Shown piece after piece: positions 1 to 16,511 of a DNA stretch of 64,000 bases. A program made the position numbers and the translations under genes. Position 1 is the first letter of the stretch, and every line of letters starts with the position of its first letter. The notes below the pieces were generated by a model. The model was not told where the DNA came from and did no database searches. It worked only from the letters and a program-made list of their open reading frames with translations. The stretch comes from an uncultured Candidatus Saccharibacteria bacterium (GTDB lineage: Bacteria > Patescibacteriota > Minisyncoccia > Phycocordibacterales > PALSA-1337). The DNA is taken from contig CAZBVQ010000001.1 of NCBI GenBank assembly GCA_964495685.1, positions 105,521-169,520 of the forward strand, written 5' to 3'.

Positions 1-1232
1 ATATTCAGCAGGGAGTCTCAATCTCAATATTCGCAAAGAAAGAAGGCAAAAAGAAAGTCGGATTGGCAGATGTGTACCACTTCGAATTATGGGGCAAGCG
101 GGAAGATAAGTTTGCGGCTCTCAATGCGAGCACTATCGAAAATGTAAAGTGGAATAAATTGAACTATTCCGAGCCATATTATTTCTTTGTACCTAAAGAC
201 TTTGGCGACGAGGAGGAATATAAGAAGGGATTTTCTGTGACAGAAATATTTGGTGAATACAATTCAGGCATTCAGACCAAACGCGACGATCTTACGATAA
301 GTTTTGATAGGGGAAGCATTGAAGCAGTGGCTACAGATATGGAGAATCTTCCTGTCGACGAGATACGAAAGAAATATAATCTTCCTGAGGATGGTCGAGA
401 CTGGAAGATAGAGTGGGCGAAAAAAGATGTTACGGCTGGATATAAAATCGAAAATATTCAATACCGTCCTTTTGACACACGATACACTCTCTATACTGGG
501 CGTTCGAAAGGTTTTCTTGCGTATCCTCGAGAGAAGACAAACAAGAATATTGTTGGTAAAGACAATTTATCATTGCTGACAAGTCGCATGATCCCGCCTT
601 CCCAGGATTTTGATAGAAGTTTGGTCACACGAAATATATCTGATATACATGCGGCCAGTGACCAGACCTACGTTTTTCCATTGTATCTATATGCTGATGA
701 TGGATCGAAAGTATCGAATCTTAAGAAAGAAATTGTCGAAAAAATTAAGAATATAGTCGGAGATATTTCTCCGGAGGATATTTTCGATTACATATACGCA
801 ATGTCGTACTCGCCAACCTATAGGCAAAAATATAAGGAATTTTTAAGGATAGATTTTCCTCGGATACCATACCCAAAAGACGCTCAACAGTTTAAATCTC
901 TTGTTTCACGAGGTCGGGAACTTCGAAACCTACATTTGTTTGAGTCAAAGAATATCAATATTCTAACCACCTACCCCGCTAGCGGTTCTAATACTGTTGA
1001 GGCTGTTTCATATAAAAACGGCAATGTTTTCATTAACATTGACCAATATTTCGGGAATGTTCCTGCTACCGTTTGGGATTTTCACATTGGAGGATATATT
1101 CCTGCACAGAAGTGGCTCAAAGACCGAAGAGGACACAAACTATCTGACGATGAGATCTCGCACTACCAAAAAATTATCGTTGCTATTAGCGAAACTGCGC
1201 GGATAATGGAAGAAATTGGGAAAATTATCTAG
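1..1232 (+). CDS. Type IIG / Type ISP restriction-modification enzyme, C-terminal region (5'-partial; reading frame is open to window start)
   Basis: No in-frame stop from position 3; the ORF-track start at 63 is TTG. The YRPFD..RY..Y block and the W-DFHIGGYIP...W.K.R C-terminal block are typical of Eco57I/MmeI/LlaGI-type fused methyltransferase-specificity proteins. Confidence 0.55.
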   Translation, partial: IQQGVSISIFAKKEGKKKVGLADVYHFELWGKREDKFAALNASTIENVKWNKLNYSEPYYFFVPKDFGDEEEYKKGFSVTEIFGEYNSGIQTKRDDLTISFDRGSIEAVATDMENLPVDEIRKKYNLPEDGRDWKIEWAKKDVTAGYKIENIQYRPFDTRYTLYTGRSKGFLAYPREKTNKNIVGKDNLSLLTSRMIPPSQDFDRSLVTRNISDIHAASDQTYVFPLYLYADDGSKVSNLKKEIVEKIKNIVGDISPEDIFDYIYAMSYSPTYRQKYKEFLRIDFPRIPYPKDAQQFKSLVSRGRELRNLHLFESKNINILTTYPASGSNTVEAVSYKNGNVFINIDQYFGNVPATVWDFHIGGYIPAQKWLKDRRGHKLSDDEISHYQKIIVAISETARIMEEIGKII

Positions 1233-3065
1233 CTAGAATTCTCCGAGAATCTTTAGCAGTTTCTCCTCGTGTTCATTTATAGCCTTGGCGTCAGGTTTGA
1301 TCGAATGAATGTCTATGATTGGATTGTCTTTGAAGTAAAGTACCTCGTTGCTCTGGAAGATGCCGCTCCAGCCCTTCTTTTTACGGTCATCAGTGTTCGT
1401 CGCTACTCTGATTGCCTCATTATATTGATCTATATCGAGTTTTATCATCTCCTTTCTCTCGGATACGTGACCAGTCAAATCTGTTTCATACGTTCTGAAC
1501 AGTTTTTTGAGCAGTCCTTCGAAAGCTAAAAGTTTAGAATAGCCATCGATGAGCATCTCACGTCTTTCGAGAAATATCTTTTCCATCGTCGGGTCGATAA
1601 ATTTGAGAAATGTTTTTCCGTCCTCCTTAAACTCCTTTAAAAGCATCTTTCCTTCAAAGACGCCGGAAAGGATAGTAAGCGACATATTGTATATGCTGAA
1701 GAAATTCGGCTTGCCCTGATTATTCAGATTGCCGATGATAAGCTCGCGATCCAAGTGTTCACCTTTATGTTCCGGATCATCATCGGCATAAACGATGCCG
1801 AGATTGGCGTCGTAACGGTCAGTCCTTTCCTTGAAGTCCTTCACAAATTCGTAGTTGCCGTTGAAGTTGTACAGGCTTTCGCCGGTGATGACGATCCCGT
1901 CGAATTTTTCAAAAGCCTTCTTTTCATCGAGTTCTCCTTTTTCAGTTATATCGAGGCCGACCCTCTCCATTACTTCTTTAGCAGCCGCGAATTCGCTGTC
2001 ATAGAGGCGCTTGCTGTATAGCTTCTCTTTCATCGTCTCCGCCTCTGTATGGTTTCGTATCTGAAGTTCTTCCGCTTCGATGTGTTTGCGGAGTATCGAA
2101 TTTGCCTCTGTTTTGATAGCAATCCATCTATTGAATAACTCAGCATCACTGCTTACTGCAAGTGGTGTGTATGCTTCCTCAAGTCCGTCATCAAGCCATT
2201 TGAGGCATCCTTCCTTGAGCATGACCTGTATAGTTGTATTGTGTTCAACGGCATACTTCTCCATAGCCTTTGTAACATCGTCACAGGTGCCGGTATCCTC
2301 ATCGTCGGCTTCCTGATTTTTGGCCATAGCTTTTTCAGTAACTTCGATACCTTTCATCTTCAGAAAATATCGAGCTACTTCGACAAGAGGAATACAAGCA
2401 AAATAGTGGAAAAGCTGATATTCCTTGGCAAATTTGTTATAGCTTTGTTCCGCAACGAGAGATGCTAGCTTTCCCTTTGCCTCTGGAGAAAATTCAGATT
2501 TTCCGTTATACAGATTGGCAATGATTTCTTCTTGATCAAGATACTGATGATCTGTCTCCACGTCGGGGTAGAGTTCGTTCATACGCTTTCTGTCGTCCGG
2601 ATTCAGTTTTTCAAAGGCTAATTGATAAATGGCATAGTCGAAATCGAGCCCTTCCTTCAGCTTTACTTCTTTCTGCTTAGCTGCGATCCTTACGGCTTCG
2701 TCGAGCTCGACCATCTTCATTTTCTCCAAGGTATCAATGCATCTGCCCATCCTGCGATATGAGGGGTAGTAGAGTAGATTTAGAATGACAGGAAGTTGTG
2801 CCAAATATGCAACTTTGGCATCTTTGTATATTAGTTCGACCTCGATCTCCATTCTTCCCGTGTGCTTCCAGGCTTCATTTAGCCGATTCCACTCTCGAGC
2901 TTCGCTGTTATCCTTGGCTTTCCAGTTTTCCAACGCATCCTTATCAGCGGGAGTCAAAATATCCTTGCCGGTTTTCATCTTTTGCACGTCGTTTTGAATG
3001 AGGAGAATGAATTTCTCCCGTGCCGTTAGGTTTCCAGTATGTAGCATTCGCGTTAAATCTCTCAT
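1233..3065 (-). CDS. hypothetical protein, 610 aa, no recognisable motifs (no P-loop, no HTH seen); last gene of the minus-strand methyltransferase operon
   Basis: Long uninterrupted ORF with protein-like composition, tightly packed against flanking genes. Confidence 0.5.
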   Translation of the reverse strand: MRDLTRMLHTGNLTAREKFILLIQNDVQKMKTGKDILTPADKDALENWKAKDNSEAREWNRLNEAWKHTGRMEIEVELIYKDAKVAYLAQLPVILNLLYYPSYRRMGRCIDTLEKMKMVELDEAVRIAAKQKEVKLKEGLDFDYAIYQLAFEKLNPDDRKRMNELYPDVETDHQYLDQEEIIANLYNGKSEFSPEAKGKLASLVAEQSYNKFAKEYQLFHYFACIPLVEVARYFLKMKGIEVTEKAMAKNQEADDEDTGTCDDVTKAMEKYAVEHNTTIQVMLKEGCLKWLDDGLEEAYTPLAVSSDAELFNRWIAIKTEANSILRKHIEAEELQIRNHTEAETMKEKLYSKRLYDSEFAAAKEVMERVGLDITEKGELDEKKAFEKFDGIVITGESLYNFNGNYEFVKDFKERTDRYDANLGIVYADDDPEHKGEHLDRELIIGNLNNQGKPNFFSIYNMSLTILSGVFEGKMLLKEFKEDGKTFLKFIDPTMEKIFLERREMLIDGYSKLLAFEGLLKKLFRTYETDLTGHVSERKEMIKLDIDQYNEAIRVATNTDDRKKKGWSGIFQSNEVLYFKDNPIIDIHSIKPDAKAINEHEEKLLKILGEF

Positions 3066-3066
3066 G

Positions 3067-3309
3067 TTATCTTCTTTTCTTTAGGGTTTGTTCAAGGAAT
3101 TCGACCCGTTCCTTGAGATCAGCCACTTCGATCACTTTTGAAAGTGCCAAAGCAACACGCGAGACAGTCATGGCCCTCCTTAGCGTAGTTTTGCCCTGTG
3201 ACACGTCCTTAAGGGTGGTCGAGAGAATCTCGCCGGCTTCCTCGATGCTCAATATCTTCTTGTTTTCTTGGATATTCATATGTTTGTTACATTCCTTCGA
3301 CGATCTCAA
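3067..3309 (-). CDS. hypothetical small protein (80 aa), predicted helical/coiled
   Basis: ORF is packed 1 nt from the 610-aa gene and overlaps the upstream gene by 23 nt (operon-like). Confidence 0.35.
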   Translation of the reverse strand: MRSSKECNKHMNIQENKKILSIEEAGEILSTTLKDVSQGKTTLRRAMTVSRVALALSKVIEVADLKERVEFLEQTLKKRR

Positions 3310-3676
3310 CCCATGCTTTTACTTCAGCTGCCTTGCCGGACTTTGTTGCCTCTCTGTAGAGGGCGGAAATGACGTTCGGAGTGAGCTTTTTGGCCCAATA
3401 GCTGATGCTTTTCATGAGACCACCGTCCTCATCGATCTTTTTGTTCCATGCTGATAGCGTGCCGGGGTCCTTGATACCGAATCTCTTAGCAAATTCTGTT
3501 TGGTTTTTGATGTCGAGAAGCGATATGGCAATCTCATCATCAATGCCAAATTTCTCGATAACGTGCTTTGGCTGCCCACGGAGTATCGAGGGCATGGATC
3601 GCCAAAGAACGTATGACTCGAATTCCTGTTTCTTGTATACATTCAGTGATTTGGAATGTTCGGCATCGATTTCCAT
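3287..3676 (-). CDS. small HTH-like protein (129 aa), possibly phage terminase-small-subunit-like
   Basis: Segment EFAKRFGIKDPGTLSAWNKK resembles an HTH recognition helix; located directly downstream of the methyltransferases. Confidence 0.35.
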   Translation of the reverse strand: MEIDAEHSKSLNVYKKQEFESYVLWRSMPSILRGQPKHVIEKFGIDDEIAISLLDIKNQTEFAKRFGIKDPGTLSAWNKKIDEDGGLMKSISYWAKKLTPNVISALYREATKSGKAAEVKAWVEIVEGM

Positions 3677-3682
3677 ATGCGT

Positions 3683-4450
3683 TTAATCATGGTTAATCAG
3701 TTCGGCTTTTTTCTTGGTCAATTTCTCCCATCTCTCGACTATGGTCTTTGCATACGCCTCATCCAGCTCAACCATGAGACACTTTCGACCTAAGTGTTCG
3801 CAGGCAATCAAAGTTGATCCTGAACCGCCGAATGGATCGAGTACGATATCCCCGGGCTTTGTCGAGTGGTATATGAGGCGACGCAGAAGGGCTGGCGGTT
3901 TCATCGTCGGATGCAGCTTGCTTCTTGATGGTTTGGGGTAGAAAAGAGCCGTTTTGTCTTTGTTGCCGAAATATTGGTGTTTGCCGTACCAGCCGTACAC
4001 AATGAGCTCGTGTTGAGGATGGTAGTCCTTGCGGCCGACCACGAGGTGATTCTTTATCCATATGAGGAGTGCTGACTTCGTATAGCCGGTATCGTGTAGG
4101 GCATTCAGAAGTTCACGGAGTTTAGTGTCTCCGTTGAAGATGTAGAAAGCATTTTTCTCGGCCATATGGGAGTTGACTGCCTCGAGCCACTTATTTGAGA
4201 GATCGTAATAGTCGACATTTACTGCGTCTCCTTTGATCGCCTTAAATTCCACTCCATTTCCGCCTTTATGGATCGTGTCGAGGAATTCCTGCTTGCCCTC
4301 GACGTAACCAACGCCGTAGGGCGGGTCGGTCAAGACGAGATCGATCTTGTCGCCGCCAATGAGAAGATCCACGTCCTCTTTTTTCGTCGCATCTCCCAGA
4401 AGAAGACGATGTTCCCCGAGCTTCCAGATTTTAGTTGAGCTTTTTGGCAT
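3683..4450 (-). CDS. DNA methyltransferase (N6-adenine/N4-cytosine, beta-class, N6_N4_Mtase family)
   Basis: DPPY motif (LVLTDPPYGVGY) precedes the AdoMet motif I (LDPFGGSGST). The ORF track extends to 4507; the start used here is the internal Met (MPKSS..) to limit overlap with the upstream gene. Confidence 0.8.
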   Translation of the reverse strand: MPKSSTKIWKLGEHRLLLGDATKKEDVDLLIGGDKIDLVLTDPPYGVGYVEGKQEFLDTIHKGGNGVEFKAIKGDAVNVDYYDLSNKWLEAVNSHMAEKNAFYIFNGDTKLRELLNALHDTGYTKSALLIWIKNHLVVGRKDYHPQHELIVYGWYGKHQYFGNKDKTALFYPKPSRSKLHPTMKPPALLRRLIYHSTKPGDIVLDPFGGSGSTLIACEHLGRKCLMVELDEAYAKTIVERWEKLTKKKAELINHD

Positions 4451-5690
4451 GGTTTTGAGTGAAGTGCTCGTAACGCCGAATAATGAGATCGCAGAATGTG
4501 GGGTCAAGTTCGACCAAGTATGCCCGGCGTTTCAGTTGCTCTGCGGCGATCAGGGTACTTCCGCTTCCGCCGAAAAGATCGAGCACGATTTCTCCCGGTG
4601 CGCTACAGCGTTTCATCGGTTTTTCGTTCAATGTTATCGGTTTCTGTGTTGGGTGCTCGTAATCTGCGGTATTGTCGCGCTTCACTAGCCAGAGCTGGAC
4701 GATTGACATAAGGTCGTCATACGCGCCGATCGAGTTAACTTCTTTGTTTAGGATTTCTGATAGATTTTTTACCGACGGATTCAAGATAGGACTGCCGCGT
4801 GTGCCGTACACGCATGGTTCTATGACCTTGTTGAAGGCGACTTGCGGTGTTGGATCAAAGTTATTCTTGACCCAGAAGCAGATACGCCTGTTTACAATGC
4901 CGTTTTTCTCATACAGATTTTGGAGAAGCCAGACGTATTTCTCATCGCACCAGTAGAAGATGTGGATATCTGGCTTACATCCTGAAAGCGCATTCTTGAG
5001 CGATGTCTCGATGGATTTCTCGTATTCACCAGTGCTTTTGCTGTCATTTACAATCTTGTCAGTATATTTGCCGTTCGTACCTATGCCTTTGCGATAATCG
5101 AGGCCGATATTGTACGGGGGATCGCAGTAAATCATGCTCGCTTTGTCCGTACCCATCAGTTTCTGAATTGTCTCTGGATTTAGCGAGTCGCCGCATATGA
5201 GCTTATGGTCTCCAAGCTCATATATGTCACCGGGCTTGGTTTCTGGTACACTGATTTTTTCAAGCTCCTCCTTTACGTTGAATCCGTCATCCTGAATGTC
5301 GAGAACGTCGTCAAAGAACCCATTCAGTTCATCCGGTGTGAATCCAACGTCCATGAGCATGTTCGAATCGAAAAGCTTCAAAAGTTCTTCGTCCCAGCTT
5401 CCAAGGTTCTTGTTGAGACGAAGATTAAGCTCCTTTTCGCGCTCAATCTCCGGAATATTGAGATATACAACCGGCACTTCTGTGAATCCGAGTGTTGTGG
5501 CGACTTTGAGGCGAAGATGACCACCAATCACCACATTTTTTCGCTCTGGAGAACCATTTACGATGAGGGGATCGCAGAGGCCGAAGCGTTTGATGCTCTC
5601 GCTCATGTCGTAAAGCACTTTGTCGTCCCATTTCCTAGGATTATAGGCCGAGGGCTTCAGTTCTTTGATTTGTACGTGGTCGATTTTCAT
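4431..5690 (-). CDS. ParB-like nuclease domain fused to DNA methyltransferase (ParB-MTase)
   Basis: N-terminus: ELKPSAYNPRKWDD...GGHLRL (ParB/Srx fold). C-terminus: CDPPYN and LDLFGGSGST (DPPY and motif I). This is a common phage/plasmid methylase architecture. Confidence 0.8.
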   Translation of the reverse strand: MKIDHVQIKELKPSAYNPRKWDDKVLYDMSESIKRFGLCDPLIVNGSPERKNVVIGGHLRLKVATTLGFTEVPVVYLNIPEIEREKELNLRLNKNLGSWDEELLKLFDSNMLMDVGFTPDELNGFFDDVLDIQDDGFNVKEELEKISVPETKPGDIYELGDHKLICGDSLNPETIQKLMGTDKASMIYCDPPYNIGLDYRKGIGTNGKYTDKIVNDSKSTGEYEKSIETSLKNALSGCKPDIHIFYWCDEKYVWLLQNLYEKNGIVNRRICFWVKNNFDPTPQVAFNKVIEPCVYGTRGSPILNPSVKNLSEILNKEVNSIGAYDDLMSIVQLWLVKRDNTADYEHPTQKPITLNEKPMKRCSAPGEIVLDLFGGSGSTLIAAEQLKRRAYLVELDPTFCDLIIRRYEHFTQNHAKKLN

Positions 5691-5757
5691 AATAGTTGTT
5701 TATTGATTACTAATAAGTGAAGTATAGTAACTATTTAAGGCAAAAAAATTTATACTG

Positions 5758-6297
5758 TTAAAAACGCGCAGGCATCCTCCTCTTGAAAGTAAGGTGCAGG
5801 CGCTTGAGCTGGATCTCGGCAACAGGCTTGCTCACCTTGAAGATTCTAGCGACATCCTCGATATACGGCGACGGTGTTACCTTATACAGCTCGCGAACCA
5901 TTATTTCGGGCATGAGTATGTCGCCTGCAAATTCATCGCAAAGATCTTCGTCCCAACCGTGCACATTTTTCGAGCAGAACACCGTTTTTGGCTGATTGGG
6001 GAAGAGAACTATATGCGCCAGCTCATGCGCGGCGGAGAAACGCTGCCTCTCGGTGCATTCTTGGCCATTAACCACGACAATCCATCCGATATTCATGTCT
6101 TTGGTGGAGAAAGCCGACACGCCTTGCGGGAAAAGCTCGCTATTCGACTTTACGACGCAGTGTACATCGCCGAGATATGACTCGATGACATCCCTGATTG
6201 GAATGGGAGTCTTGAAATAGCCGGAGTCCTGTGCCTCCTTCAGAATCTCATTTACCTTGTTTTTGGCTTTGACTCGCCACTCGTCTGGGATCCGCAT
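5758..6297 (-). CDS. ImmA/IrrE family metallo-endopeptidase
   Basis: HEXXH signature AAHELAHIVLF; the gene lies directly downstream of an XRE repressor gene. Confidence 0.75.
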   Translation of the reverse strand: MRIPDEWRVKAKNKVNEILKEAQDSGYFKTPIPIRDVIESYLGDVHCVVKSNSELFPQGVSAFSTKDMNIGWIVVVNGQECTERQRFSAAHELAHIVLFPNQPKTVFCSKNVHGWDEDLCDEFAGDILMPEIMVRELYKVTPSPYIEDVARIFKVSKPVAEIQLKRLHLTFKRRMPARF

Positions 6298-6302
6298 ATT
6301 GG

Positions 6303-6653
6303 TTACTTAGTTTTTAAATGTTGTTTGATGTGTTCGATATATGCCTCGACCGCTTGTATCTGATTGTCGTTCAGATCATACTTGGCCCGAAGGAAGGTGG
6401 GTGTACTTGCTTTGGCGATATAATCCTCTTGTGTGATGCCTGCCTTTGTGAGGATTAACTCAACCGGCTCCTTCAATCCGTCCGCAATCTGTCGAAGTGT
6501 CTTGACTGAAGGGGAATCATCCAAGTACTCACCGCTTTCAAGCCTCGAAATATATCCTCTTGTGAGCTTCGATTCCTTGGCAAGTTTCTCCTGGGTCAAA
6601 CCCTTATCTTCACGCAATGACTTTATGACCGTGTGCAATTTCATGTTCTTCAA
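6303..6653 (-). CDS. XRE-family helix-turn-helix transcriptional regulator (ImmR-like repressor)
   Basis: LTQEKLAKESKLTRGYISRLESGE is a classic Cro/C1 HTH; pairs with the ImmA gene. Confidence 0.85.
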   Translation of the reverse strand: MKNMKLHTVIKSLREDKGLTQEKLAKESKLTRGYISRLESGEYLDDSPSVKTLRQIADGLKEPVELILTKAGITQEDYIAKASTPTFLRAKYDLNDNQIQAVEAYIEHIKQHLKTK

Positions 6654-7112
6654 TTCAACTTATGCTTCTAATGCTTCGACTGGCTTAATGATACCATGCA
6701 TGACTACAAGGTTACAATAGTATACAGTGTGGATATTGAATTAGGACACGGAAATAGCCACCTGTAAATACTTGGCTACGAAAAGCCAATCAAGTCAAGA
6801 ACGAATCGATAGAGATATGTATTTATGGCGATGTATAGCCATTCTTTGAACTTCATGAGTTTGAGATGGGTCTAAACTATTGGGTTTGTTTGGCTTTTGA
6901 CCCAAGTGAGACATGATGCGGATCCATCAAGGACTGTCTCAATTGTCTCATTTTGAGGAAACTAGCCCCTATGCGGATGCCTCACTACACTATTGGTGTG
7001 ATTGCCAGAAAACCCTTATACTGTCTTATACTACACAGTCCGAGACGTTAGTGGGGCACAACCAATACGCATGTTAATGTTAGATAGTTGTGATAATATC
7101 TTGAGATCAAAC

Positions 7113-7382
7113 ATGAAAAAATACTCTGAAAAAATGATAGTAATTATTTTTGGTTTCTTACTGTTCATTCCGGGTGTTTTAAGTATTTTTCCTCCGATAA
7201 GTTATCTGGTCTCACATTACGAATATGTCCTTCGTCTTCCAGCTCACGGTTTTCCTCTTTTATATAGGGGAGCTTTCCTTTTCATTGATTCATTATATTA
7301 TGCGCCAGTAGTTTTAAAGTTAGCCGTTTTGTTTGCCGGATTATTTTTAATATTATACGGATTCATCCATTACAAGAGATAA
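7113..7382 (+). CDS. small hydrophobic membrane protein (about 89 aa from the internal Met)
   Basis: Two or three predicted TM stretches (IVIIFGFLLFIPGVL, LAVLFAGLFLILYGFI). Confidence 0.35.
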   Translation: MKKYSEKMIVIIFGFLLFIPGVLSIFPPISYLVSHYEYVLRLPAHGFPLLYRGAFLFIDSLYYAPVVLKLAVLFAGLFLILYGFIHYKR

Positions 7383-7404
7383 ATAGTGAATATCCTCATA
7401 TATT

Positions 7405-8022
7405 ATGTCCATCAAATTCAACGAAGTTACCTGGTACTCAAAGCTCGGCGCAATCATCTTGTTTATTCTGGTCGTTCCAGTTTTGACGTTTTGTATTGGT
7501 CGGAAATATCAGGAAGTCATCGACATTCAGGTTGTAAGTGTGACAAATACTTCATCACCAAAACATATGGCCGCATCACCTGATCACCAGGGCGCAGTGA
7601 GTCCTCTGAGTAGTACGTATCACATCGATGATCAGGATGTAACACTCTCCAACGGTTCATTCGAGCAATCTGTAGAGGGAAGTTCTGGCACATTCGAGAC
7701 AAAACTATTTGGCGAGCCAGTGTATGGCGACCTCAATGGCGATGGTGTCAACGATGCTATTTCATTTTTGTATCAGGAGACTCCAGGTACTGGTATCTTT
7801 TTCTACGCTGTAGCCACAATCAATGTGAACGGCTCGTATGTCGGCACCAATGCCATTTTCTTGGGAGACCGTATTGCTCCGCAAAATATTACTATCTCCA
7901 AAGGTGTAGCCGCTGCAAACTATGCGACTCGCAAAGATTCAGATCCCATGACTACCGATCCATCAGTTGGAGTGACCAAATACGTGAAGATCGAAGGGTT
8001 GAAATTGGTGGAGGGGAGGTAG
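7405..8022 (+). CDS. membrane-anchored hypothetical protein (N-terminal TM)
   Basis: N-terminal TM segment AIILFILVVPVLTF; DLNGDGVNDA-type motif. Confidence 0.45.
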   Translation: MSIKFNEVTWYSKLGAIILFILVVPVLTFCIGRKYQEVIDIQVVSVTNTSSPKHMAASPDHQGAVSPLSSTYHIDDQDVTLSNGSFEQSVEGSSGTFETKLFGEPVYGDLNGDGVNDAISFLYQETPGTGIFFYAVATINVNGSYVGTNAIFLGDRIAPQNITISKGVAAANYATRKDSDPMTTDPSVGVTKYVKIEGLKLVEGR

Positions 8023-8098
8023 GTTATATTTTCTCTAGTATTTTACGCATGGTAGCATTGTGATCGATCTACAAAAGTCATTTTTTTGGTATTTAAGA

Positions 8099-8860
8099 TT
8101 ACTTTATCCCAGTCCACATGTTTTCAAATAGATTTAGGTAAGCTTTGGTAAGCGCTTTATTTTTTATGCATATAGCAGTGACTGGTGAATACTCAGTTGA
8201 GTAAATTATGTTCAGTACGGTGTCTATCTCTGGGTAGATGTGTAGGCCAGCAGGGTTGGGGTTATTAGACTCAACGTATTTTATTTCATACATATTTATG
8301 TTAGATACGTCATGGTCGATTGATTCCTTCTGGGAAGAGTAGCCGAGCATCTTGATGTGTACATTTTTCTTACGAACAACCTTATGATACTTGTCCCAAA
8401 TTGGTCGCATGGTTTGTTTCATGAAATCTTCTCCACCTGTACCCAAAACATATTTTGTACTTCGTGCGGGCATCGAGTTGATAAGTGTTGAGAGCAGTCT
8501 GAGGTACTCATCGTTGCCTTCGTGCACAGAAATCTCCCGCAATTCCCGATTGGTTGTGATTTGTTGATAATAACGAAGTAAATTTTCAGCGCTTTCTTGT
8601 TTTTCCTTGAGCTCAGTAATCAAAATGTTCGGGGTAATAGATTCAAAGATCATTTTACCCTTCATATTTTTGGCAGATATAAGTTTTTTGTCCACGAGGT
8701 GGTCAAGGGCGGTATATACAATGTTTCGGTGGAGGTTTGTTTTTGCGATTATGTTTCCAGCGGCGGAGGCGCCCTGTTGTAGCAAAACTTGGTAGACGAG
8801 GGCCTCGTTTTCTGAAAAACCCAATTTTCTTAAATCGAATAAATCGTTGTTTATAGGCAT
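8099..8860 (-). CDS. TrmB-family transcriptional regulator (copy 1)
   Basis: N-terminal winged HTH LGFSENEALVYQVLLQ...NIVYTALDHLVDKKLI plus a C-terminal TrmB-like domain; divergent to a binding-protein gene. Confidence 0.7.
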   Translation of the reverse strand: MPINNDLFDLRKLGFSENEALVYQVLLQQGASAAGNIIAKTNLHRNIVYTALDHLVDKKLISAKNMKGKMIFESITPNILITELKEKQESAENLLRYYQQITTNRELREISVHEGNDEYLRLLSTLINSMPARSTKYVLGTGGEDFMKQTMRPIWDKYHKVVRKKNVHIKMLGYSSQKESIDHDVSNINMYEIKYVESNNPNPAGLHIYPEIDTVLNIIYSTEYSPVTAICIKNKALTKAYLNLFENMWTGIK

Positions 8861-8896
8861 ATTTTATGTATTTTAGATAGTTATCACCTAAAATAG

Positions 8897-8924
8897 TTGA
8901 CAACATATATAATTATGCTATACT
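8897..8924 (+). promoter_or_regulatory. sigma70-like promoter for binding-protein gene 1 (TTGACA-16 nt-TATACT)
   Basis: Hexamers read directly: TTGACA at 8897-8902 and TATACT at 8919-8924. Confidence 0.5.
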
Positions 8925-8965
8925 GTAACTGCTAAGTCAAATATCAGCTGTTAATAACATATATT

Positions 8966-10099
8966 ATGAAAAAAATTATTATCCCGATAGTTATTCTTCT
9001 TCTTGTTGTGGTCATTGTCGGCTATTACTCATTAGTTTCTAATAAAACAGATACGCAGGAACCGATTGTTATTGGATACATCGGACCTCTTTCTGGTCCC
9101 TCTGCAGTTTTGGGGATGGACGCTGTTAAAGCAGTCCAGATTGCCGTTGACGAAGCAAACGTCAAAGGAGGTGTTAATGGCAGGGAACTCAAGATGGTTT
9201 TCCAAGACGATCAGTACCTAACAAAAAATACGGTTACTGCCTATCGAAAGATGGTTGACACCGACGGTGCCAAGATTGTTTTAGTTGCCAACTTTGGCGG
9301 GGTTCTCGCCTTGAAGGATGCGGCAGTGAAAGACGGTGTTATTATAATTGATCCACTCGACTGTAATGCCCGAGTTGCTGATTCTAGTAAAAATCTGTTT
9401 TGCATCGCTACCGAAACAGAGTCGATTGGTACGTCTCTTGCACACAAATTGGTTTCTCAAGGAAAATTGAAGGCAGGAATCATGTATTCAACTAAAGACG
9501 AGTTTATGTCATTGGTTAGTGATGCTTTCCGCAACACGTTTGCGAAAGCTGGTGGCGTAGCCATTGTTGAGTCATTCAATTATGAGGATAAAGACTTCAA
9601 GACTCAACTCACAAAGATTAAATCAGAAAATCCTGATGCATTGGTTCTCCTAGGACACGATGAAACAGGTATAATTATGAAACAGGCACGCGATCTTGGA
9701 CTCAAAGCACCCTTCATGACAACAGGTACAATCACAAGCCCTGGGGCACAAGAAGCTGCGCGTGGATATGCCGAAGGTACACTATTTGCATTTTGGGATG
9801 CTAGTTCGGACAACCTAGGAGCACAATCACTGACTAGTACATTTACCAAATTAGTTGGTCGCCCGCCAATATTTCCTCTTACGACTCATCCTGCATACGA
9901 CGCGGTAACCGTTCTTACGACTCAGGTTTTGCCTGGAATCAATGGAGATATTACTGCCGAAAAGATAAGGGCGGGACTTCTGTCGGTCAAAGGATACAAG
10001 GGTGTAACGGGAACGATTACTATCGACAGCAATGGGGCGGCTCCAATACAAGAGAGTGTGTATAAGCTCGTGAACGGTGCTCCAGTTAAGGCGGAGTAG
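8966..10099 (+). CDS. periplasmic substrate-binding protein, LivJ/LivK-like (Peripla_BP_6), orphan copy 1
   Basis: Signal/TM N-terminus followed by IVIGYIGPLSGP...GVNGRELKMVFQDDQY, typical of branched-chain amino acid binding proteins. Confidence 0.8.
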   Translation: MKKIIIPIVILLLVVVIVGYYSLVSNKTDTQEPIVIGYIGPLSGPSAVLGMDAVKAVQIAVDEANVKGGVNGRELKMVFQDDQYLTKNTVTAYRKMVDTDGAKIVLVANFGGVLALKDAAVKDGVIIIDPLDCNARVADSSKNLFCIATETESIGTSLAHKLVSQGKLKAGIMYSTKDEFMSLVSDAFRNTFAKAGGVAIVESFNYEDKDFKTQLTKIKSENPDALVLLGHDETGIIMKQARDLGLKAPFMTTGTITSPGAQEAARGYAEGTLFAFWDASSDNLGAQSLTSTFTKLVGRPPIFPLTTHPAYDAVTVLTTQVLPGINGDITAEKIRAGLLSVKGYKGVTGTITIDSNGAAPIQESVYKLVNGAPVKAE

Positions 10100-10115
10100 A
10101 ATAAAATTTCTTGCA

Positions 10116-10153
10116 CACAAAAACCACTCCATAACCGGAGTGGTTTTTGTGTG
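10116..10153. terminator. bidirectional intrinsic terminator between convergent genes
   Basis: Hairpin cacaaaaaccactcc-ataacc-ggagtggtttttgtgtg, with U-tracts on both strands. Confidence 0.7.
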
Positions 10154-10155
10154 TA

Positions 10156-10896
10156 TTAACTTGCTGTCACCCCCCACAACATCTCAAACACCGACCTGAA
10201 GACATCCACCATAGCTGGAATCGCAACAACAACAGCCAACGCCTTTATTTCTGGTCCGATGATCACAATTTTGTCGGCATAAATATCGATGGTGCTTTTG
10301 AATACGTATTTTTCGGGCAAGTATTTGAAGGTGCGCAATAGCTTGGGATCATTTTGCCCTTCTTCGCTACGTGAATCGTTGGAAAGTAATAATTTTACGC
10401 GCGTATTGTGTGCAGCGCGCTTTTTGCGGAATGAAATAAGGAAATCTCGATCAATATTCAAGAATCCGGAGACACTGCCGATGATGTAGTACTCTTTGTT
10501 GCGATATTCTTCGAGAATGTCCATGTAGAAGGCCTCGAACTCGCGCTTTGACTTGATCAGTCGTACGCCATACTCTCTGGCTTCAGCGCCCTGCATGCGT
10601 TCGAGGAGAGGGATGATCGAGGCGAGGGAAGCAAGCTTGCGTTCCTGGAGAATTGGCAACTTATTTGGCTGGAGGGGAGTATAAAATCTTTTACTGCCTT
10701 GGTCACTTTCGGTGATCATGCAGTGATGAATCAGGCGTTCAATAACCGGGTACACAGTGGTACGTTTTATGCCCAATTCTTTGGCCAGAATGGTGGCAGG
10801 AGCGCCTCCGAGTTGGAGTAGCTTCAGATACACCTGAATATCTAGTTCAGCGAGGCCAAAATCACCCAAAACCTTACTAATTGCTTCATTATTCAT
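10156..10896 (-). CDS. TrmB-family transcriptional regulator (copy 2)
   Basis: HTH ELDIQVYLKLLQLGGAPATILAKELGIKRTTVYPVIERL; paralogous to copies 1 and 3. Confidence 0.7.
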   Translation of the reverse strand: MNNEAISKVLGDFGLAELDIQVYLKLLQLGGAPATILAKELGIKRTTVYPVIERLIHHCMITESDQGSKRFYTPLQPNKLPILQERKLASLASIIPLLERMQGAEAREYGVRLIKSKREFEAFYMDILEEYRNKEYYIIGSVSGFLNIDRDFLISFRKKRAAHNTRVKLLLSNDSRSEEGQNDPKLLRTFKYLPEKYVFKSTIDIYADKIVIIGPEIKALAVVVAIPAMVDVFRSVFEMLWGVTAS

Positions 10897-10984
10897 TGTT
10901 GTTAAAAAATTACGACAGTATAGTAAATTAAGTATAATATATTCACAAATAAAGTCAAAGTAGACTACAATTTGTTAAAATATA

Positions 10985-11013
10985 TTGACAAATAGGGTAG
11001 TCTCGTGTATACT
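10985..11013 (+). promoter_or_regulatory. sigma70-like promoter (TTGACA-17 nt-TATACT), ending 7 nt before ATG 11021, which would give a leaderless mRNA
   Basis: TTGACA at 10985-10990 and TATACT at 11008-11013; no Shine-Dalgarno sequence between the -10 and the ATG. Confidence 0.5.
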
Positions 11014-11020
11014 TAGGCCC

Positions 11021-12139
11021 ATGAAAACAAAAATTATTTCAGTAGCAGTGATTTTAGCCATTATTATAGTGATAGCTATTATTTCTGCTCACAATAGCGG
11101 TCAAACAGTCAAAATTGGCGCATTGTACCCACGCACAGGCGGATTGGCTTCATATGGTGAGCCTGCCTACAACATGGCCAAGATTGCCGTCGAGGATGTG
11201 AATGCTTCGGGTGGTATTCATGGTCAGAAATTGGAATTGATCGCCGAAGACCATGTATGTGACCCGAAAATAGCTTTGTCGGCATACGCCAAACTTCGTG
11301 ATACGCAGGGCGTCGCTATATTCACCGCAGTTGCATGCAGCGGAACTATTTCTGCTATTGCCCCCAATCTGGAAAAAGATTCGACGGTACTTCTCGGCAC
11401 AGTCACGAGTGCAAATAAACTTTCAGGGATCTCGCCATCATTTTTCCGTAACTGGGCCTCTGACGCACAGGAGTCTCGATTGATTGCCGATCGTATTGTT
11501 GCGAACAAGTACAAGACGGTGGCTGCATTGTATGAAGAGACAGATTACGCCAAAGGATTGGTCGTGTCGCTCGAGGGATTCTTGGCTAGTTCCAGCGTTA
11601 CTGTTTCAAAAGAATCATTTGTCTCTGGTGCAGGCGATGTACGCACACAACTCAAGAAATTGCAGAGCATGAATGCTGATGCGGTATTCATTAGTGTGCA
11701 GACGGTAACCAGCGGGGAAGTCGTTTTGAAACAAATGGAACAGCTCGGATTTCACCCTAAGGTTTTGTTCGTGAATGACAACATCATCAAGGCCACATCT
11801 CTTGTCACTGCGCATAGTGAATTACTCGAAGGTGCGATCGGGGGAGATTACGTGTTCGAAGTCTCTGATGAGGCGCGCGGTGTCCTCGCTCATTACAAGA
11901 ATGTCTACGGTGTCGATTGCCCGCAGGTAAATATTTGTCTGGCTGAATATGATGCGATACGAATGCTCGCAGAAGCCATCAAGGAAAAAGGTGTAGTAGC
12001 ACAAGATGTCAGGGGATATTTGGCGGATAGTTCATACCAGGGACTCACGGGAACTATTTCTTTTGATGGCAAGAATGATAGGGAGGGTGCAGGGTATTCG
12101 TTGTTTGGGATTGACAAAGGTGCTGTGAATAAATTGTAA
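11021..12139 (+). CDS. periplasmic substrate-binding protein, LivJ/LivK-like, orphan copy 2
   Basis: MKTKIISVAVILAII TM then VKIGALYPRTGGLASYGEP...GIHGQKLELIAEDH; paralogous to copies 1 and 3. Start placed at the internal ATG just after the promoter. Confidence 0.8.
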   Translation: MKTKIISVAVILAIIIVIAIISAHNSGQTVKIGALYPRTGGLASYGEPAYNMAKIAVEDVNASGGIHGQKLELIAEDHVCDPKIALSAYAKLRDTQGVAIFTAVACSGTISAIAPNLEKDSTVLLGTVTSANKLSGISPSFFRNWASDAQESRLIADRIVANKYKTVAALYEETDYAKGLVVSLEGFLASSSVTVSKESFVSGAGDVRTQLKKLQSMNADAVFISVQTVTSGEVVLKQMEQLGFHPKVLFVNDNIIKATSLVTAHSELLEGAIGGDYVFEVSDEARGVLAHYKNVYGVDCPQVNICLAEYDAIRMLAEAIKEKGVVAQDVRGYLADSSYQGLTGTISFDGKNDREGAGYSLFGIDKGAVNKL

Positions 12140-12151
12140 AGATGCACCCAA

Positions 12152-12901
12152 TCAATTTTCCTCACTCGCATTCCACATAATCCCGTACATCTCCTGGTGC
12201 ATACGAATGACACTCTTATTTTCGATCACGATGCCAATAATCGGCTGTGTGAGCTGGTGAATCAATACTCGTTGTGGCGTAATGACTAGATTGGTAGTGA
12301 GTGTAGTCGCGGTAGGTAACATACGCGCCTCAGCATTGAAATTCTTTGCTAGAGATAACCATTTGTGACCCATGCCAGTGTCTTGCACAAGCATTTTTAT
12401 GGTGATTGGAAGTTTGGCACGGCGAAAGGAGAAGTCGGTGAAATACTCTTCATCGGCATTTACCCAGTGATCAACATTGCCCATGATGAGATATTCTTGG
12501 TGTGGTCGTATGTCGCGCAGGAAACTTTCGTATACACTTTTGACTGACTCGATACCCTCGTAATATCTGATGAAACTTTCTCCGCCTCTGAGATTGTAGA
12601 GTGCTGAAAATTCAGGTAGTAATTCCTTGAACCGAGCACGTCTCGCCTCGAGAATACTCTCGAGTTTGTCGGGATGTTCGGCGCTGAACTTTTTCTTGAA
12701 TCCCGCAACCTCAATATTCATGAGCCCTTTTTGCTTGAGTGATTCGACGACGGAATAGACTGTCGTACGCTTGAGACCTGCCGCTTGCGATAGCCGTAGG
12801 ATGGTAGTCGGACCCAAAGAAAGGGCGGCAAAGTAAACGCCGGACTCATTTTCAGTGAGGCCGAGACCTTGCAATGTTTCTGTAAGTTGATTGTTTTTCA
12901 T
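12152..12901 (-). CDS. TrmB-family transcriptional regulator (copy 3)
   Basis: HTH LTENESGVYFAALSLGPTTILRLSQAAGLKRTTVYSVVESL. Confidence 0.7.
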   Translation of the reverse strand: MKNNQLTETLQGLGLTENESGVYFAALSLGPTTILRLSQAAGLKRTTVYSVVESLKQKGLMNIEVAGFKKKFSAEHPDKLESILEARRARFKELLPEFSALYNLRGGESFIRYYEGIESVKSVYESFLRDIRPHQEYLIMGNVDHWVNADEEYFTDFSFRRAKLPITIKMLVQDTGMGHKWLSLAKNFNAEARMLPTATTLTTNLVITPQRVLIHQLTQPIIGIVIENKSVIRMHQEMYGIMWNASEEN

Positions 12902-13049
12902 AAAATGTCGAAAAAAGCGACAACATTATGATTATACATCATATTGGTCATATAAGTAAAAACATAATTATGTCGACAAATATGACATAAATTGACATAG
13001 AGAACATAATTATTCTGTAATCATTATTTATACATTACCGAATAATCCC

Positions 13050-14195
13050 ATGAAATATAAGAAATTAGTGATAAGTGCGGTGGTTGTCATTGTTATCATC
13101 GTTTTACTTATCTCGCGAGGGGGAACCTCTTCTTCGCCAGAATCAGTTAAAATCGGCAATATTCTATTCATGACTGGACCCCTCGCCTCTCTTGGGGAAC
13201 AGGAGCTGAATGGTATGAAGTTGGCAGAAACTCAAATCAATAAAACAGGAGGTATCAATGGCCGAAAACTTGAGTTAGTTACGGAAGATTACGCTGGCGA
13301 TTCCAAGCAGGCAGTTTCTGCATTTGAGAAACTGAAAAACGAAGGAGTTCGATTTATACTCATTGATGGCGGCGCTGCCATAGGGCCGGTAGGACCGCTC
13401 GTTCGCTCAAATAGTGACGTCATGAGTATGGTGCCGATCGGAATTACGCATTCGTATTTTGATGACAATCCTCGTACGTGTCGGTTGGCTTTTACTGCGC
13501 GTGATTACGGTGCAACTATCGGTATGTATCTTAAAAATACATTTAACCGTCCTCGAATAGCGTTTTTGGTAAGCGCAAATGAATACGGCAAGGCCGCCAT
13601 GACCCAGGTTTCTATGGCAGTTACGGAAATGGGCGGATCCATTATTCTTGGTGAGACGTATGAACAGGGTGTTTCCGACTTTCGTACGCAGATAACAAAG
13701 CTCAAAGAGAAACAGAGTGATATTGATGCGCTTGTCGTCATCAATGCGACCAACTCGATTGAGCCCATGTTGATGCAATTGAAACAATTGGGTTTCAGCA
13801 AACCGATTGTTTCGGATATGTTCAGTATCGTTAACGCGTCGCTCAAGGATCGTTCGTTGGCAGAAGGTGTAGTCTTTATTGATTATCCTTTTGTAGCAGA
13901 TCCACACGATTCTGATTCTGTCGAGCTTGCTTCATTCAAGCGGGAATACTTCGCGGCATACGGTAAGTATCCCGTTGCGGCGGCGGTTGTCGGCTACGAT
14001 GCAGTGATGACCCTTGCAGTGGCAATGAAGCATTCGGCTGGACTAACTGCGCAGGAGGTTTCAACTTATCTGACTACCAGATTGGGTGAATACAAGGGTG
14101 TGAGTGGTACATTTAGCTTTGACTCAGACTGTGAGGTGAAGCGTGAGACAGTGATGCGTAAGGTCGTTGATGGAGAATTTGTAACCGTAAGGTAG
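13050..14195 (+). CDS. periplasmic substrate-binding protein, LivJ/LivK-like, orphan copy 3
   Basis: VKIGNILFMTGPLASLGEQ...GINGRKLELVTEDYAGD; N-terminal TM. Confidence 0.8.
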   Translation: MKYKKLVISAVVVIVIIVLLISRGGTSSSPESVKIGNILFMTGPLASLGEQELNGMKLAETQINKTGGINGRKLELVTEDYAGDSKQAVSAFEKLKNEGVRFILIDGGAAIGPVGPLVRSNSDVMSMVPIGITHSYFDDNPRTCRLAFTARDYGATIGMYLKNTFNRPRIAFLVSANEYGKAAMTQVSMAVTEMGGSIILGETYEQGVSDFRTQITKLKEKQSDIDALVVINATNSIEPMLMQLKQLGFSKPIVSDMFSIVNASLKDRSLAEGVVFIDYPFVADPHDSDSVELASFKREYFAAYGKYPVAAAVVGYDAVMTLAVAMKHSAGLTAQEVSTYLTTRLGEYKGVSGTFSFDSDCEVKRETVMRKVVDGEFVTVR

Positions 14196-14218
14196 GTTGA
14201 AGGTGGCATCACAATAGT

Positions 14219-14245
14219 AAAGCCGCTCCCCCCCAGAAGCGGCTG
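14219..14245. terminator. GC-rich hairpin between convergent genes (weak U-tract)
   Basis: aagccgct-cccccccag-aagcggct. Confidence 0.4.
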
Positions 14246-14265
14246 TGATCCTGAACTGATTCCAG

Positions 14266-14817
14266 CTATGCCGTTTTCTGGCGCAGGCGAGGGAATTCCC
14301 AGGACGGATTGCTCATGATCGCGTGGTAGAACCACGGGGCAAGTGCAACTGCAAAGAACAGATTGCCCGCAAGATGTCGTATGGTGAATGGCACTTGCCC
14401 AATCAGAGCCGCTGACCAAGACTGGTCATAGAGGAGTGGCCCAGCCATGACACCAGTGATCAGATCGAAGAATAGTGTTCCCACGATACTGGCCATGACG
14501 AAATGTGTGGCAGTGGCTTTGCGGTTGCGGAAGAAATATCCACCTCCGATACCGACTAGACCATAGGTAATGGCCGTCAGGATGGTCCACGAGCCGATCT
14601 TGCCGACAATGGCATCGAGAGCAACCATACTCAAGGCGCCATACAAACCTCCAACAACAGGCCCGTACGCTTTTGATCCGGCGTACTGGGTGGCCATGAG
14701 TGGAGAGATATTCCACATGCCCAAGACGGGCGTGATCAAGCGGAAGATGAGTGTTGCTACGAACCCGGCAGCGTATTTCGGCATGCCGGCCAATGGATGG
14801 ACGAGTGCATTTTTCAT
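14266..14817 (-). CDS. small polytopic membrane protein, possibly an ECF-transporter S component (RibU-like riboflavin transporter inferred from the upstream FMN-like leader)
   Basis: 183 aa, about 5-6 hydrophobic helices; the size and topology fit ECF S components. The riboflavin assignment rests only on the leader motif. Confidence 0.4.
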   Translation of the reverse strand: MKNALVHPLAGMPKYAAGFVATLIFRLITPVLGMWNISPLMATQYAGSKAYGPVVGGLYGALSMVALDAIVGKIGSWTILTAITYGLVGIGGGYFFRNRKATATHFVMASIVGTLFFDLITGVMAGPLLYDQSWSAALIGQVPFTIRHLAGNLFFAVALAPWFYHAIMSNPSWEFPRLRQKTA

Positions 14818-14904
14818 AATAATGCGGGTTTACTAATAACACCCACACAGCGTACCTACGAGGATTCATGTACGAAACAGTCATACATGGCCTGGCGCGG
14901 GCAA

Positions 14905-15005
14905 ACCAGCGAAGTGCTGGGGTGTACGAGATCGGACTTGTCGGCCCTCGACGGGGCAGACATACCGTTGCGCGACAGTGAGGGAATCACACCCTACTTC
15001 ATCGT
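14905..15005 (-). ncRNA. candidate FMN riboswitch-like (RFN-like) leader
   Basis: Minus-strand RNA GAAGUAGGGUGUGAUUCCCUCACUGUCGCGCAACGGUAUGUCUGCCCCGUCGAGGGCCGACAAGUCCGAUCUCGUACACCCCAGCACUUC. It contains GGGUG(NN)AUUCCC, CAACGGUA, GCCCCG and GCCGACA..AGUC.GAU blocks resembling the RFN core, and a P1-like closing helix GAAGU/ACUUC. It is shorter than a typical RFN element. Confidence 0.4.
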
Positions 15006-15037
15006 ACACGCTGTATGTGGGCAGTAGTATAGCATAT

Positions 15038-15070
15038 AAAAAACCGTGCGCTCTCGGCGTACGGTCTTTT
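15038..15070 (-). terminator. intrinsic terminator downstream of the HU gene
   Basis: Minus-strand hairpin accgtacgcc-gaga-gcgcacggt followed by UUUUUU. Confidence 0.65.
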
Positions 15071-15092
15071 ACTCGATAGTAGGAGACAGGGG

Positions 15093-15556: not shown

Positions 15557-15577
15557 TGAGGGGAACGCTTGCAAGGC

Positions 15578-16499: not shown

Positions 16500-16511
16500 T
16501 TAGACCGAAGC

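Follow-up and report, generated by a model that had tools for sequence, protein, structure and literature searches.

Phage satellites of the PICI/SaPI, PICMI and P4-like types are 5–15 kb in size and are governed by a master repressor module. They carry a small-terminase (TerS) homolog of their own and lack genes for the large terminase (TerL), the capsid, the tail and lysis. The TerS proteins of SaPI and PICI elements redirect the terminase of a helper phage. To our knowledge, no phage satellites have been described in Patescibacteria, and none were found in the literature searched. Patescibacteria have tiny genomes, mostly without CRISPR. Their mobile elements and their conflicts with phages have been little explored; genomic islands bearing restriction-modification (R-M) genes have already been reported in Paceibacteria (PMC12455944). 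Here we describe a cassette of seven genes near the left end of a stretch of 64,000 nucleotides (hereafter the window) from an uncultured Candidatus Saccharibacteria bacterium. The cassette shares with the satellites the size, the repressor module, a TerS-like gene and the absence of TerL, capsid, tail and lysis genes, and it recurs with conserved gene order in the genomes of other Patescibacteria. We tentatively favor the reading that it is an element of the phage-satellite type, which in this genome is immobilized or mobilized in trans.

The resemblance goes further in related loci, where the element has an integrase at one of its ends, a variable slot for defense genes or other cargo, and a primase (Prim-Pol in locus L024). 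The cassette family is distinguished from the described satellites by its recombinase, which is usually of the large serine type, by two phage-type methyltransferases (MTases) accompanied by the genes p80 and p610, and by frequent diversity-generating retroelement (DGR) cargo. The copy in the window also has neither an integrase nor a replication gene, and its excision and packaging are putative. The second closely related system is the pre-packaging module of Patescibacteria-like phages in IMG/VR (PHROG 498), in which homologs of the ParB-MTase, the MTase and the TerS-slot gene of the cassette occur in the same order. Unlike this module, the cassette has p80 and p610 in place of TerL and the head genes, and a repressor/protease pair directly upstream.

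Gene organization of the locus

Eight genes are located within positions 1–6653 of the window; coordinates are those of the window unless another contig is named, and the left flank outside the window is found on contig L001. The map of these genes in the initial annotation was reproduced exactly by the list of open reading frames (ORFs) and by Pfam, PADLOC and PHROG profile searches. Five of the eight proteins match known families in these searches and three, p129, p80 and p610, do not. The features of the locus are:

3–1232, plus strand: Type IIG R-M enzyme, C-terminal 409 aa (PF18135 Type_ISP_C, 3e-82; PADLOC REase_MTase_IIG, 6e-102)
1233–3065, minus strand: p610, 610 aa, mostly helical and cassette-specific; hallmark gene of the element family
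3067–3279 (alternative start 3309), minus strand: p80, helical, 70–80 aa (alignment, synteny, ratio of nonsynonymous to synonymous substitution rates (dN/dS) 0.03)
3287–3676, minus strand: p129, TerS-like helix-turn-helix (HTH) protein, 129 aa; a homolog abuts TerL in viral contig L096
3683–4450 (alternative start 4507), minus strand: predicted beta-class N6/N4 DNA methyltransferase, 255–274 aa (PF01555, 4e-31; phrog_498, 2e-77)
4431–5690, minus strand: ParB_N + N6_N4_Mtase fusion (PF02195, 5e-10; PF01555, 5e-25; phrog_498, 6e-100)
5758–6297, minus strand: M78 zinc metallopeptidase of the ImmA/IrrE/CapP type (PF06114, 2e-11; PADLOC capP, 6e-16; HELAH)
6303–6644 (alternative start 6653), minus strand: XRE-family HTH repressor of the ImmR/CapH type, 113 aa from the ATG at 6644 (PF01381, 8e-14; PADLOC capH, 6e-10)
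6645–6740, minus strand: predicted operon promoter and leader, right end of the cassette (promoter scan; alignment with locus L033)
6903–7062, plus strand: conserved non-coding element, part of the flank and not of the cassette (74% identical to L067 19165–19325)

The seven minus-strand genes are spaced by −20 to +7 nt, with a single exception, the 67 nt that separate the ParB-MTase gene from the M78 gene, and therefore constitute a tight operon. All seven ORFs are intact. The block is best explained as two independent accessory units: the Type IIG enzyme, and the cassette that extends from position 1233 to approximately 6740. No tRNA or Rfam genes were detected in the window at the gathering threshold.

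A relative of the window, locus L033, shares the cassette, the Type IIG gene and the neighboring ABC genes at approximately 78% DNA identity (86% identity for p610). The convergent Type IIG (stop at 1232) and p610 (1233) genes end on neighboring bases in the window, with no spacer and no terminator-like hairpin; the same junction in L033 has a gap of 1 bp.

Methyltransferases and the TerS-like protein p129

The ParB-MTase contains DPPY at residue 190 and FGGSG at residue 373. The second MTase, a ParB-less paralog of the upstream ParB-MTase, contains DPPY at residue 42 and FGGSG at residue 207. With motif IV (DPPY) ahead of motif I (FGGSG) and a PF01555 match in each, both are predicted to be beta-class N6A/N4C methyltransferases. 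The initial annotation had regarded ParB-methylase fusions as a hallmark of phages and integrative elements. The phage affinity is confirmed by 20 IMG/VR viral contigs that encode homologs of the ParB-MTase at 46–56% identity. In these contigs the next gene is mostly an MTase and/or a TerS-like ORF, and TerL was detected after them in 3 contigs. Judged by homology and gene order, the MTase pair corresponds to a phage pre-terminase module.

This correspondence bears on one alternative, according to which the locus is a regulated host operon of orphan, epigenetic methyltransferases and p129, p80 and p610 are unrelated passengers. The two MTases with no cognate nuclease in the operon, and the repressor/protease switch upstream, would suit such an operon. 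The pre-terminase origin of the MTase pair argues against it, as do the invariant linkage of the five genes and the occurrence of p610 without MTases, beside primases and integrases. We consider this explanation decidedly improbable.

The product of p129 occupies the TerS slot after the two MTases. It is 55% identical (E 1e-47) to the ORF located directly upstream of TerL (phrog_2, 1e-29) in L096, a 39-kb IMG/VR viral contig of a predicted phage in which a major head protein (phrog_9953, 1e-43) is encoded as well. A further homolog, encoded in L097 and 32% identical to p129, precedes TerL and portal and matches three PHROG TerS families (3e-5 to 8e-3). The position immediately upstream of TerL in a phage is that of these homologs and not of p129 itself. 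The p129 protein has no significant match in Pfam, PHROG or PADLOC, and the TerS family phrog_2538 matches p129 orthologs at E ~0.1 in only 3 of 14 cases. A PDB profile search gave no match for p129. Its AlphaFold2 (AF2) model contains HTH-like helices, and its structure matches generic HTH proteins only. On sequence evidence, p129 is thus a homolog of TerS-slot proteins that itself matches no curated TerS model.

p80 and p610

The gene p80 is always located between p129 and p610, and its product shows no family match in Pfam, PHROG or PADLOC. In cassette variants that lack the MTases, p610 is preceded by DUF5763 proteins, whose tail is similar to the C-terminal motif of p80. In the phage modules the position of p80 and p610 is held by TerL, to which they are unrelated; p610 was tried as a TerL and rejected at an hhalign probability of 0.1%.

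The p610 protein belongs to a family of 229 clusters at 50% identity among 1.84 billion representatives. It is encoded on the 521,699-bp contig ena:ERZ27309394:k141_127337, and its homologs carry labels of Patescibacteria groups (Paceibacteria, Minisyncoccia, Taylorbacteria, Yanofskybacteria and Adlerbacteria). The host genome itself is of the Patescibacteria and Paceibacteria-like. With E values as high as 10 admitted, Pfam, PHROG and PADLOC still had no match to p610; none came from a PDB profile search or, at E ≤ 1e-3, from Foldseek against BFVD. The AF2 model of p610 (pLDDT 80, pTM 0.56) is mostly helical. An acidic motif, GIVYADDDPEHKGEHLD, at residues 426–434 (window 1764–1790, minus strand) is well conserved in the 600-aa group of p610 proteins. 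Y426 and D430 are invariant in the alignment, and the whole segment is missing from a distant relative of 497 aa. The "YADD" at residue 426 was considered as the YxDD motif of a reverse transcriptase and, having no supporting fold, is treated as a coincidence. Distant p610 relatives were too divergent in the alignment for building search patterns. Among IMG/VR contigs, p610 and p80 were found in only one; this contig is not a phage but an integrative element that carries Type III genes and a DGR as well as a serine recombinase.

Regulatory genes and predicted operon promoter

ImmR/ImmA pairs control ICEBs1, an integrative and conjugative element (ICE). Similar to ImmR/ImmA of ICEBs1 and phage phi105 and to CapH/CapP of CBASS and other defense operons, an XRE gene and a gene for an HExxH M78 peptidase head the operon in the window. 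The zinc site of the M78 protein is HELAH at residue 91, and 5 nt separate its gene from the XRE gene. The adjacent XRE HTH and M78 genes have the sequence features of an ImmR/ImmA (CapH/CapP) regulatory pair. Unlike in the described pairs, activation and cleavage are putative here, and the similarity lies at the family level only. By analogy, the XRE/M78 pair may act as a switch of the ImmR/ImmA or CapH/CapP type in which the protease cleaves the repressor. The pair is located upstream and on the same strand in approximately 9 related loci; in many others it is divergent or is replaced by an S24/LexA-type repressor.

The start of the XRE gene at ATG 6644 is backed by the L033 alignment and by the gene call. 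A putative promoter was located at 6717–6688, with the −35 box TTGTAA and the extended −10 box TGGTATCAT, by a promoter scan whose site counts were not above those of shuffled sequences. The operon leader (6645–6740) is 100% conserved and contains GAAGCAT twice.

Distribution of the cassette in Patescibacteria

Related loci were searched with peptide patterns and tblastn in one genome per species, and 27 loci were found in that scan. Since the discovery used peptide patterns, the locus counts are lower bounds. Gene calls in the related loci derive partly from a crude ORF caller, and the taxonomic labels of metagenome-assembled genomes (MAGs) are sometimes wrong. Nearly all of the 27 loci bear the label Patescibacteria or that of an unclassified MAG; labels of other phyla occur on a few short contigs, which are probably mis-binned.

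The order ParB-MTase, MTase, p129, p80, p610, in one orientation, is kept in every locus with enough sequence, even where p610 is a distant relative of 496 aa. The exceptions are the MTase-less loci L022, L024 and L026, and L065, which was found through a distant p610 relative. The flanks of the cassette are unrelated among more than 25 Patescibacteria loci. It ends right after p610 in many genomes, and housekeeping genes (enolase, PPDK) follow it directly in several. The GC content of the cassette follows that of the host across the related genomes, from 37% to 55%.

Where the sequence extends 5 kb or more downstream (25 loci), a same-strand recombinase follows the cassette in 12 cases and is usually of the large serine type (PF00239+PF07508+PF13408). 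The space between p610 and the recombinase is filled by variable cargo: DGRs, GmrSD with an EcoRI-type MTase, or Type I/III R-M genes. DGRs are present in 11 of 36 loci. They comprise a reverse transcriptase, bAvd, one to three targets of approximately 270 aa, and sometimes AAA_5 and VWA proteins. DGRs are located between p610 and a large serine recombinase in L029 (11896–21598), L006, L008, L012, L013, L016, L062 and L098, which suggests that elements of this family are carriers of DGRs in Patescibacteria. In L029, the element is bounded exactly by tRNA-Ser on one side and tRNA-Arg on the other. In the MTase-less variants, a DUF5763 protein takes the place of p129 and p80, and p610 is found beside Prim-Pol/PriCT or DnaG-like primases, ParA, and tyrosine or serine integrases. 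Because recombinases, cargo, primases, ParA and integrases adjoin p610 in related loci, it can be regarded as the hallmark of a family of small integrative elements. The cassette itself is taken to be such an element, since about half of the related loci have a linked same-strand recombinase and a cargo slot.

The cassette is not described in the literature searched. Three components of the locus are of known kinds, namely the ParB-MTase fusion, the Type IIG gene and the pair of the ImmR/ImmA type. What is new is the recurrent architecture of the cassette in Patescibacteria, the TerS-like gene together with an orphan 600-aa family that replaces TerL, and the association with DGRs and serine recombinases.

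The integrative neighbors of p610 would also suit an ICE or an integrative mobilizable element, in which p129 and p80 would be relaxosome accessories, p610 a new mobilization or replication-initiation protein, and the MTases anti-restriction functions of a leading region. The control of ICEBs1 by an ImmR/ImmA pair fits this picture, as do the p610 relatives beside ParA, Prim-Pol and DnaG-like primases and integrases, and genes for pilins of a type IV secretion system (T4SS) occur in the related genome L071. Against it, genes or domains for a relaxase, a coupling protein or a T4SS were found neither in nor beside any cassette or related locus examined, and the closest non-cassette relatives of p129 are phage genes next to TerL. 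We consider an element of this kind improbable. More generally, no structural, lysis or conjugation genes are present in or beside the cassette.

Chromosomal site and boundaries

The Type IIG gene is preceded on its left by two livG/livF-like ABC ATPase genes, beyond which more TrmB and binding-protein genes follow. In L001, L033 and L067, the livF-like gene is separated from the variable DNA by a LOOT small RNA gene (Rfam RF03000; 81–85 bits). In L001 it occupies positions 14974–15088, on the minus strand of that contig and the plus strand in the window orientation, with 81.6 bits against a gathering threshold of 46.4, which places it approximately 1.9–2.0 kb left of window position 1. The similarity among L001, L033 and L067 ends at the 3′ end of the LOOT RNA, and variable DNA begins there. 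This start of variable DNA at the 3′ end of a small RNA gene resembles integration sites of the tRNA type.

A different occupant of the site is found in L067 (Logan SRR25528439_551), whose livF-like protein is 97% identical. A sibling cassette (11023–17304) occupies the position of the window cassette and contains genes for an S24/LexA-like repressor, a 245-aa protein, ParB-MTase, MTase, TerS (PHROG TerS matches, 3e-6) and TerL (phrog_38, 1.5e-82). The window ParB-MTase and MTase are 48% and 52% identical to the copies of this sibling cassette. It includes a convergent gene for a 284-aa protein with a weak HNH match, is adjoined by a ThsB-TIR gene and has no portal or capsid genes. In L069, L070 and L071 (83–88% LivF identity), unrelated housekeeping genes follow livF directly, with no island. 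These sequence comparisons identify the site of the cassette as a variable hotspot that starts 3′ of the LOOT RNA. A supposed scar of the Type IIG gene in L067 was rejected, as it is the conserved LOOT RNA gene and not a gene remnant. A search for an empty site through the 205-aa gene of the right flank yielded nearest relatives of only 47% identity.

The statement of the initial annotation that the block is cargo rather than core genome agrees with the different cassette in L067, with the absence of any in L069, L070 and L071, and with the unrelated contexts in more than 25 loci. Its placement of the right boundary near 6.7–7.0 kb is also supported. The homology with L033 stops approximately 90 bp upstream of the XRE start, at window 6735–6740, beyond which L033 has a different gene, and the breakpoint with L067 is at approximately 7062. 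The non-coding gap that had been marked there is real and runs from 6645 to 7133. It contains the conserved non-coding element 6903–7062 of approximately 160 nt, which is 74% identical to L067 though synonymous sites are saturated. The element has GAGACA/TGTCTC inverted repeats, an RNA fold z of −2.55 and no Rfam match. It lies upstream of a gene for a small membrane protein (7134–7382) in the window. In L067 it is followed by an AdoCbl-like riboswitch and then by a membrane-protein gene; an ORF of L067 named p142 was rejected as a gene, the region being non-coding and consisting of the conserved element and this riboswitch.

A match to the AdoCbl riboswitch was also observed in the window at 14878–15024 (minus strand), upstream of a gene for a 183-aa membrane protein (14266–14817, minus strand); the pair is conserved in L067 (19384–19529). 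With 33.6 bits against a gathering threshold of 50 (E 1.6e-4) it is below the threshold, and a default Rfam scan misses it. The conserved element and the riboswitch with the 183-aa gene are adjacent and co-oriented in L067, whereas in the window they are 7.7 kb apart and in opposite orientation. Because the riboswitch and its gene are inverted there, the window is rearranged relative to L067, by inversion or insertion, between approximately 7.06 and 15.04 kb.

In the wider surroundings, at window 8099–14195 and at L001 1–4967 and 16690–21833, at least six TrmB-like genes are found, each divergent with a Peripla_BP_6 (Liv-type) gene. No permease genes adjoin the livG/livF-like ATPase genes.

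Composition, mobility genes and selection

The initial annotation had described the block as visibly AT-richer than the DNA to its right and as a likely degraded edge of a prophage or ICE. The difference in composition exists relative to the more distant DNA: the GC content of 1–6653 is 44.6%, and windows of the same size across 14.2–64 kb have 49.1 ± 1.1%. It does not exist relative to the immediate neighbors, which are lower still, with 42.8% at 6654–14200 on the right and 43.1% in the 6.7 kb left of the Type IIG gene. There is thus no compositional break at 6.7–7.0 kb. Low GC within the block is confined to the Type IIG gene (39.4%) and p610 (43.4%); the MTase and M78 genes have 47–51%. The shift in GC at approximately 14.2 kb coincides with the AT-rich (37–46% GC) TrmB/Peripla_BP_6 array, which explains it, and not with an island. 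Composition was therefore rejected as an island marker at this locus.

The prophage or ICE edge was not borne out either. The 5.5 kb of the cassette form a discrete unit, whose end comes right after p610 in many genomes. Neither the 10 kb on the left nor any part of the window (searched by tblastn), which extends approximately 57 kb to the right of the block, was found to contain a gene for a recombinase, a reverse transcriptase or a primase. Comparison of the edges for att direct or inverted repeats gave only short matches at chance level. Large serine recombinases are not known to leave long repeats. Genes for large terminase, portal, capsid or tail were found neither in 1–9 kb nor in the adjoining 10 kb on the left.

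The genes are not degraded. Relative to L033, dN/dS is 0.013 for p129, 0.03 for p80, 0.04 for p610, 0.04 for the Type IIG gene and 0.13 for the XRE gene, thus 0.01–0.13 where it was computable; the M78 gene and both MTase genes gave no valid dS. The dS of these five genes is above 1, and so is that of the flanking ABC genes. Vertical inheritance of the cassette and the Type IIG gene at this site has accordingly lasted long, under purifying selection and with no recombinase nearby, and an inert remnant is largely excluded. Such a decaying prophage remnant at a former integration site would account for the missing integrase and for the presence of phage-type MTases and a TerS homolog where all other phage genes are absent. 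It is at odds with seven intact and tightly coupled ORFs and with the recurrence of the same genes in the same order across more than 25 divergent genomes, and it is largely refuted by dN/dS values of 0.013–0.13 at saturated dS. We regard it as highly improbable. With no recombinase, vertical inheritance and strong purifying selection, the window copy is most likely immobilized or mobilized in trans, and its retention is put down to its still being functional.

The same observations would also be expected of a non-mobile anti-phage system domesticated by the host, in which infection would cause a CapH/CapP-like induction, p129, p80 and p610 would sabotage packaging, and the MTases would mark self DNA or protect otherwise. 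Strong purifying selection and long vertical residence beside the same ABC genes speak for it, as do the lack of a recombinase here and in about half of the loci and the PADLOC matches to capP (6e-16) and capH (6e-10). Defense genes are common neighbors; they include the Type IIG gene, shared by the window and L033, GmrSD plus an MTase in L031, ThsB-TIR by the sibling cassette, and Type I/III genes in other loci. PADLOC-DB v2 models match none of p129, p80 and p610, however, and returned only generic MTase, capH/capP and RmrA-like matches. No effector domain (nuclease, TIR, pore or NTPase) is detectable, and the frequent same-strand recombinase, the primases and ParA suit a mobile element better. 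We consider a purely defensive system unlikely. A defense role and a satellite origin are not mutually exclusive.

The Type IIG enzyme

The part of the Type IIG gene in the window encodes the MTase end and the target-recognition domain. The full gene encodes approximately 1027–1077 aa and starts approximately 1.85–2.0 kb left of the window; the start is probably that of the 1027-aa form, since the 1077-aa call overlaps the LOOT RNA. The full-length product in L001 contains N6_Mtase (PF02384), MmeI_Mtase (PF20473), Eco57I (PF07669) and Type_ISP_C (PF18135). Similar to the MmeI-family Type IIG/IIL enzymes, the predicted protein combines MmeI_Mtase, N6_Mtase, Eco57I and a C-terminal specificity domain in one polypeptide. 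Judged from these domains, it is an MmeI-like Type IIG enzyme, the N-terminal nuclease segment being located outside the window. Type ISP enzymes (LlaGI/LlaBIII) are approximately 1570 aa long. The enzyme had been annotated as Type IIG/ISP-like. The Type IIG part of this assignment stands, and the Type ISP part was rejected because no helicase/ResIII domain is among the Pfam matches listed for the full-length product and its length is approximately 1050 aa compared with approximately 1570 aa.

With a GC content of 39.4% and a GC3 (GC content at third codon positions) of 0.385, the Type IIG gene is the sole clear compositional outlier of the block. Its segment at window 308–642, which belongs to the recognition domain, cannot be aligned at the DNA level with the otherwise approximately 80% identical gene of L033. 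This is consistent with a swap or diversification of the specificity of the enzyme, and similar to the MmeI family, the recognition segment is hypervariable between the window enzyme and its relatives. By itself, the Type IIG gene is an ordinary defense gene.

Proposed role of the cassette

We propose the following course of events for a cassette of the phage-satellite type. The XRE repressor would keep the operon off until a signal of stress or infection is received, upon which the M78 protease would cleave the repressor. The two MTases, expressed on induction, would methylate DNA that is bound for packaging or transfer. After derepression, p129 would recognize the DNA of the element and recruit or misdirect the terminase and capsids of a helper phage. 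The p80 and p610 proteins would act together as a cassette-specific partner in the terminase/capsid step; as p610 has no recognizable domain, its part in the mechanism is a guess.

Of the traits that characterize satellites, a packaging-redirection gene of its own in the absence of capsid, tail and lysis genes is represented in the cassette by the TerS-like p129 and the lack of structural genes. An integrase with att sites is missing from the window copy and present in about half of the related loci. Several observations weigh against the satellite interpretation. The window copy lacks an integrase, a primase and an att site; in about half of the related loci a recombinase is likewise not found near the cassette, and some of them end in housekeeping genes. 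Because the window copy and about half of the loci lack a recombinase, a purely cellular role is possible. No helper phage was identified for this genome; a candidate helper-type phage with a p129-like TerS exists in IMG/VR (L096) and cannot be linked to this genome. The p610 protein has no recognizable ATPase, nuclease or other domain. Finally, the single IMG/VR contig that carries the cassette is itself an integrative element rather than a phage.

A more far-reaching proposal would make the cassette the first phage-satellite lineage of Patescibacteria, that is, of the candidate phyla radiation (CPR). It would consist of a switch, two phage MTases and a TerS, with p80/p610 as a new hijack or packaging-interference factor of unseen fold. 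The lineage would be a main vehicle of DGRs and restriction genes in ultra-small genomes of this kind, and its recombinase-less copies would be domesticated anti-phage modules. We consider this proposal doubtful in its full extent.

The cassette is a compact, recurrent and maintained unit in which a stress switch and an orphan family of 600-aa proteins are combined with genes for phage packaging and modification. If the reading as a satellite or a packaging-interference element is true, the cassette would provide a handle on how DGRs and defense genes move in CPR bacteria, and a new protein family would be added to the toolkit of phage parasitism.

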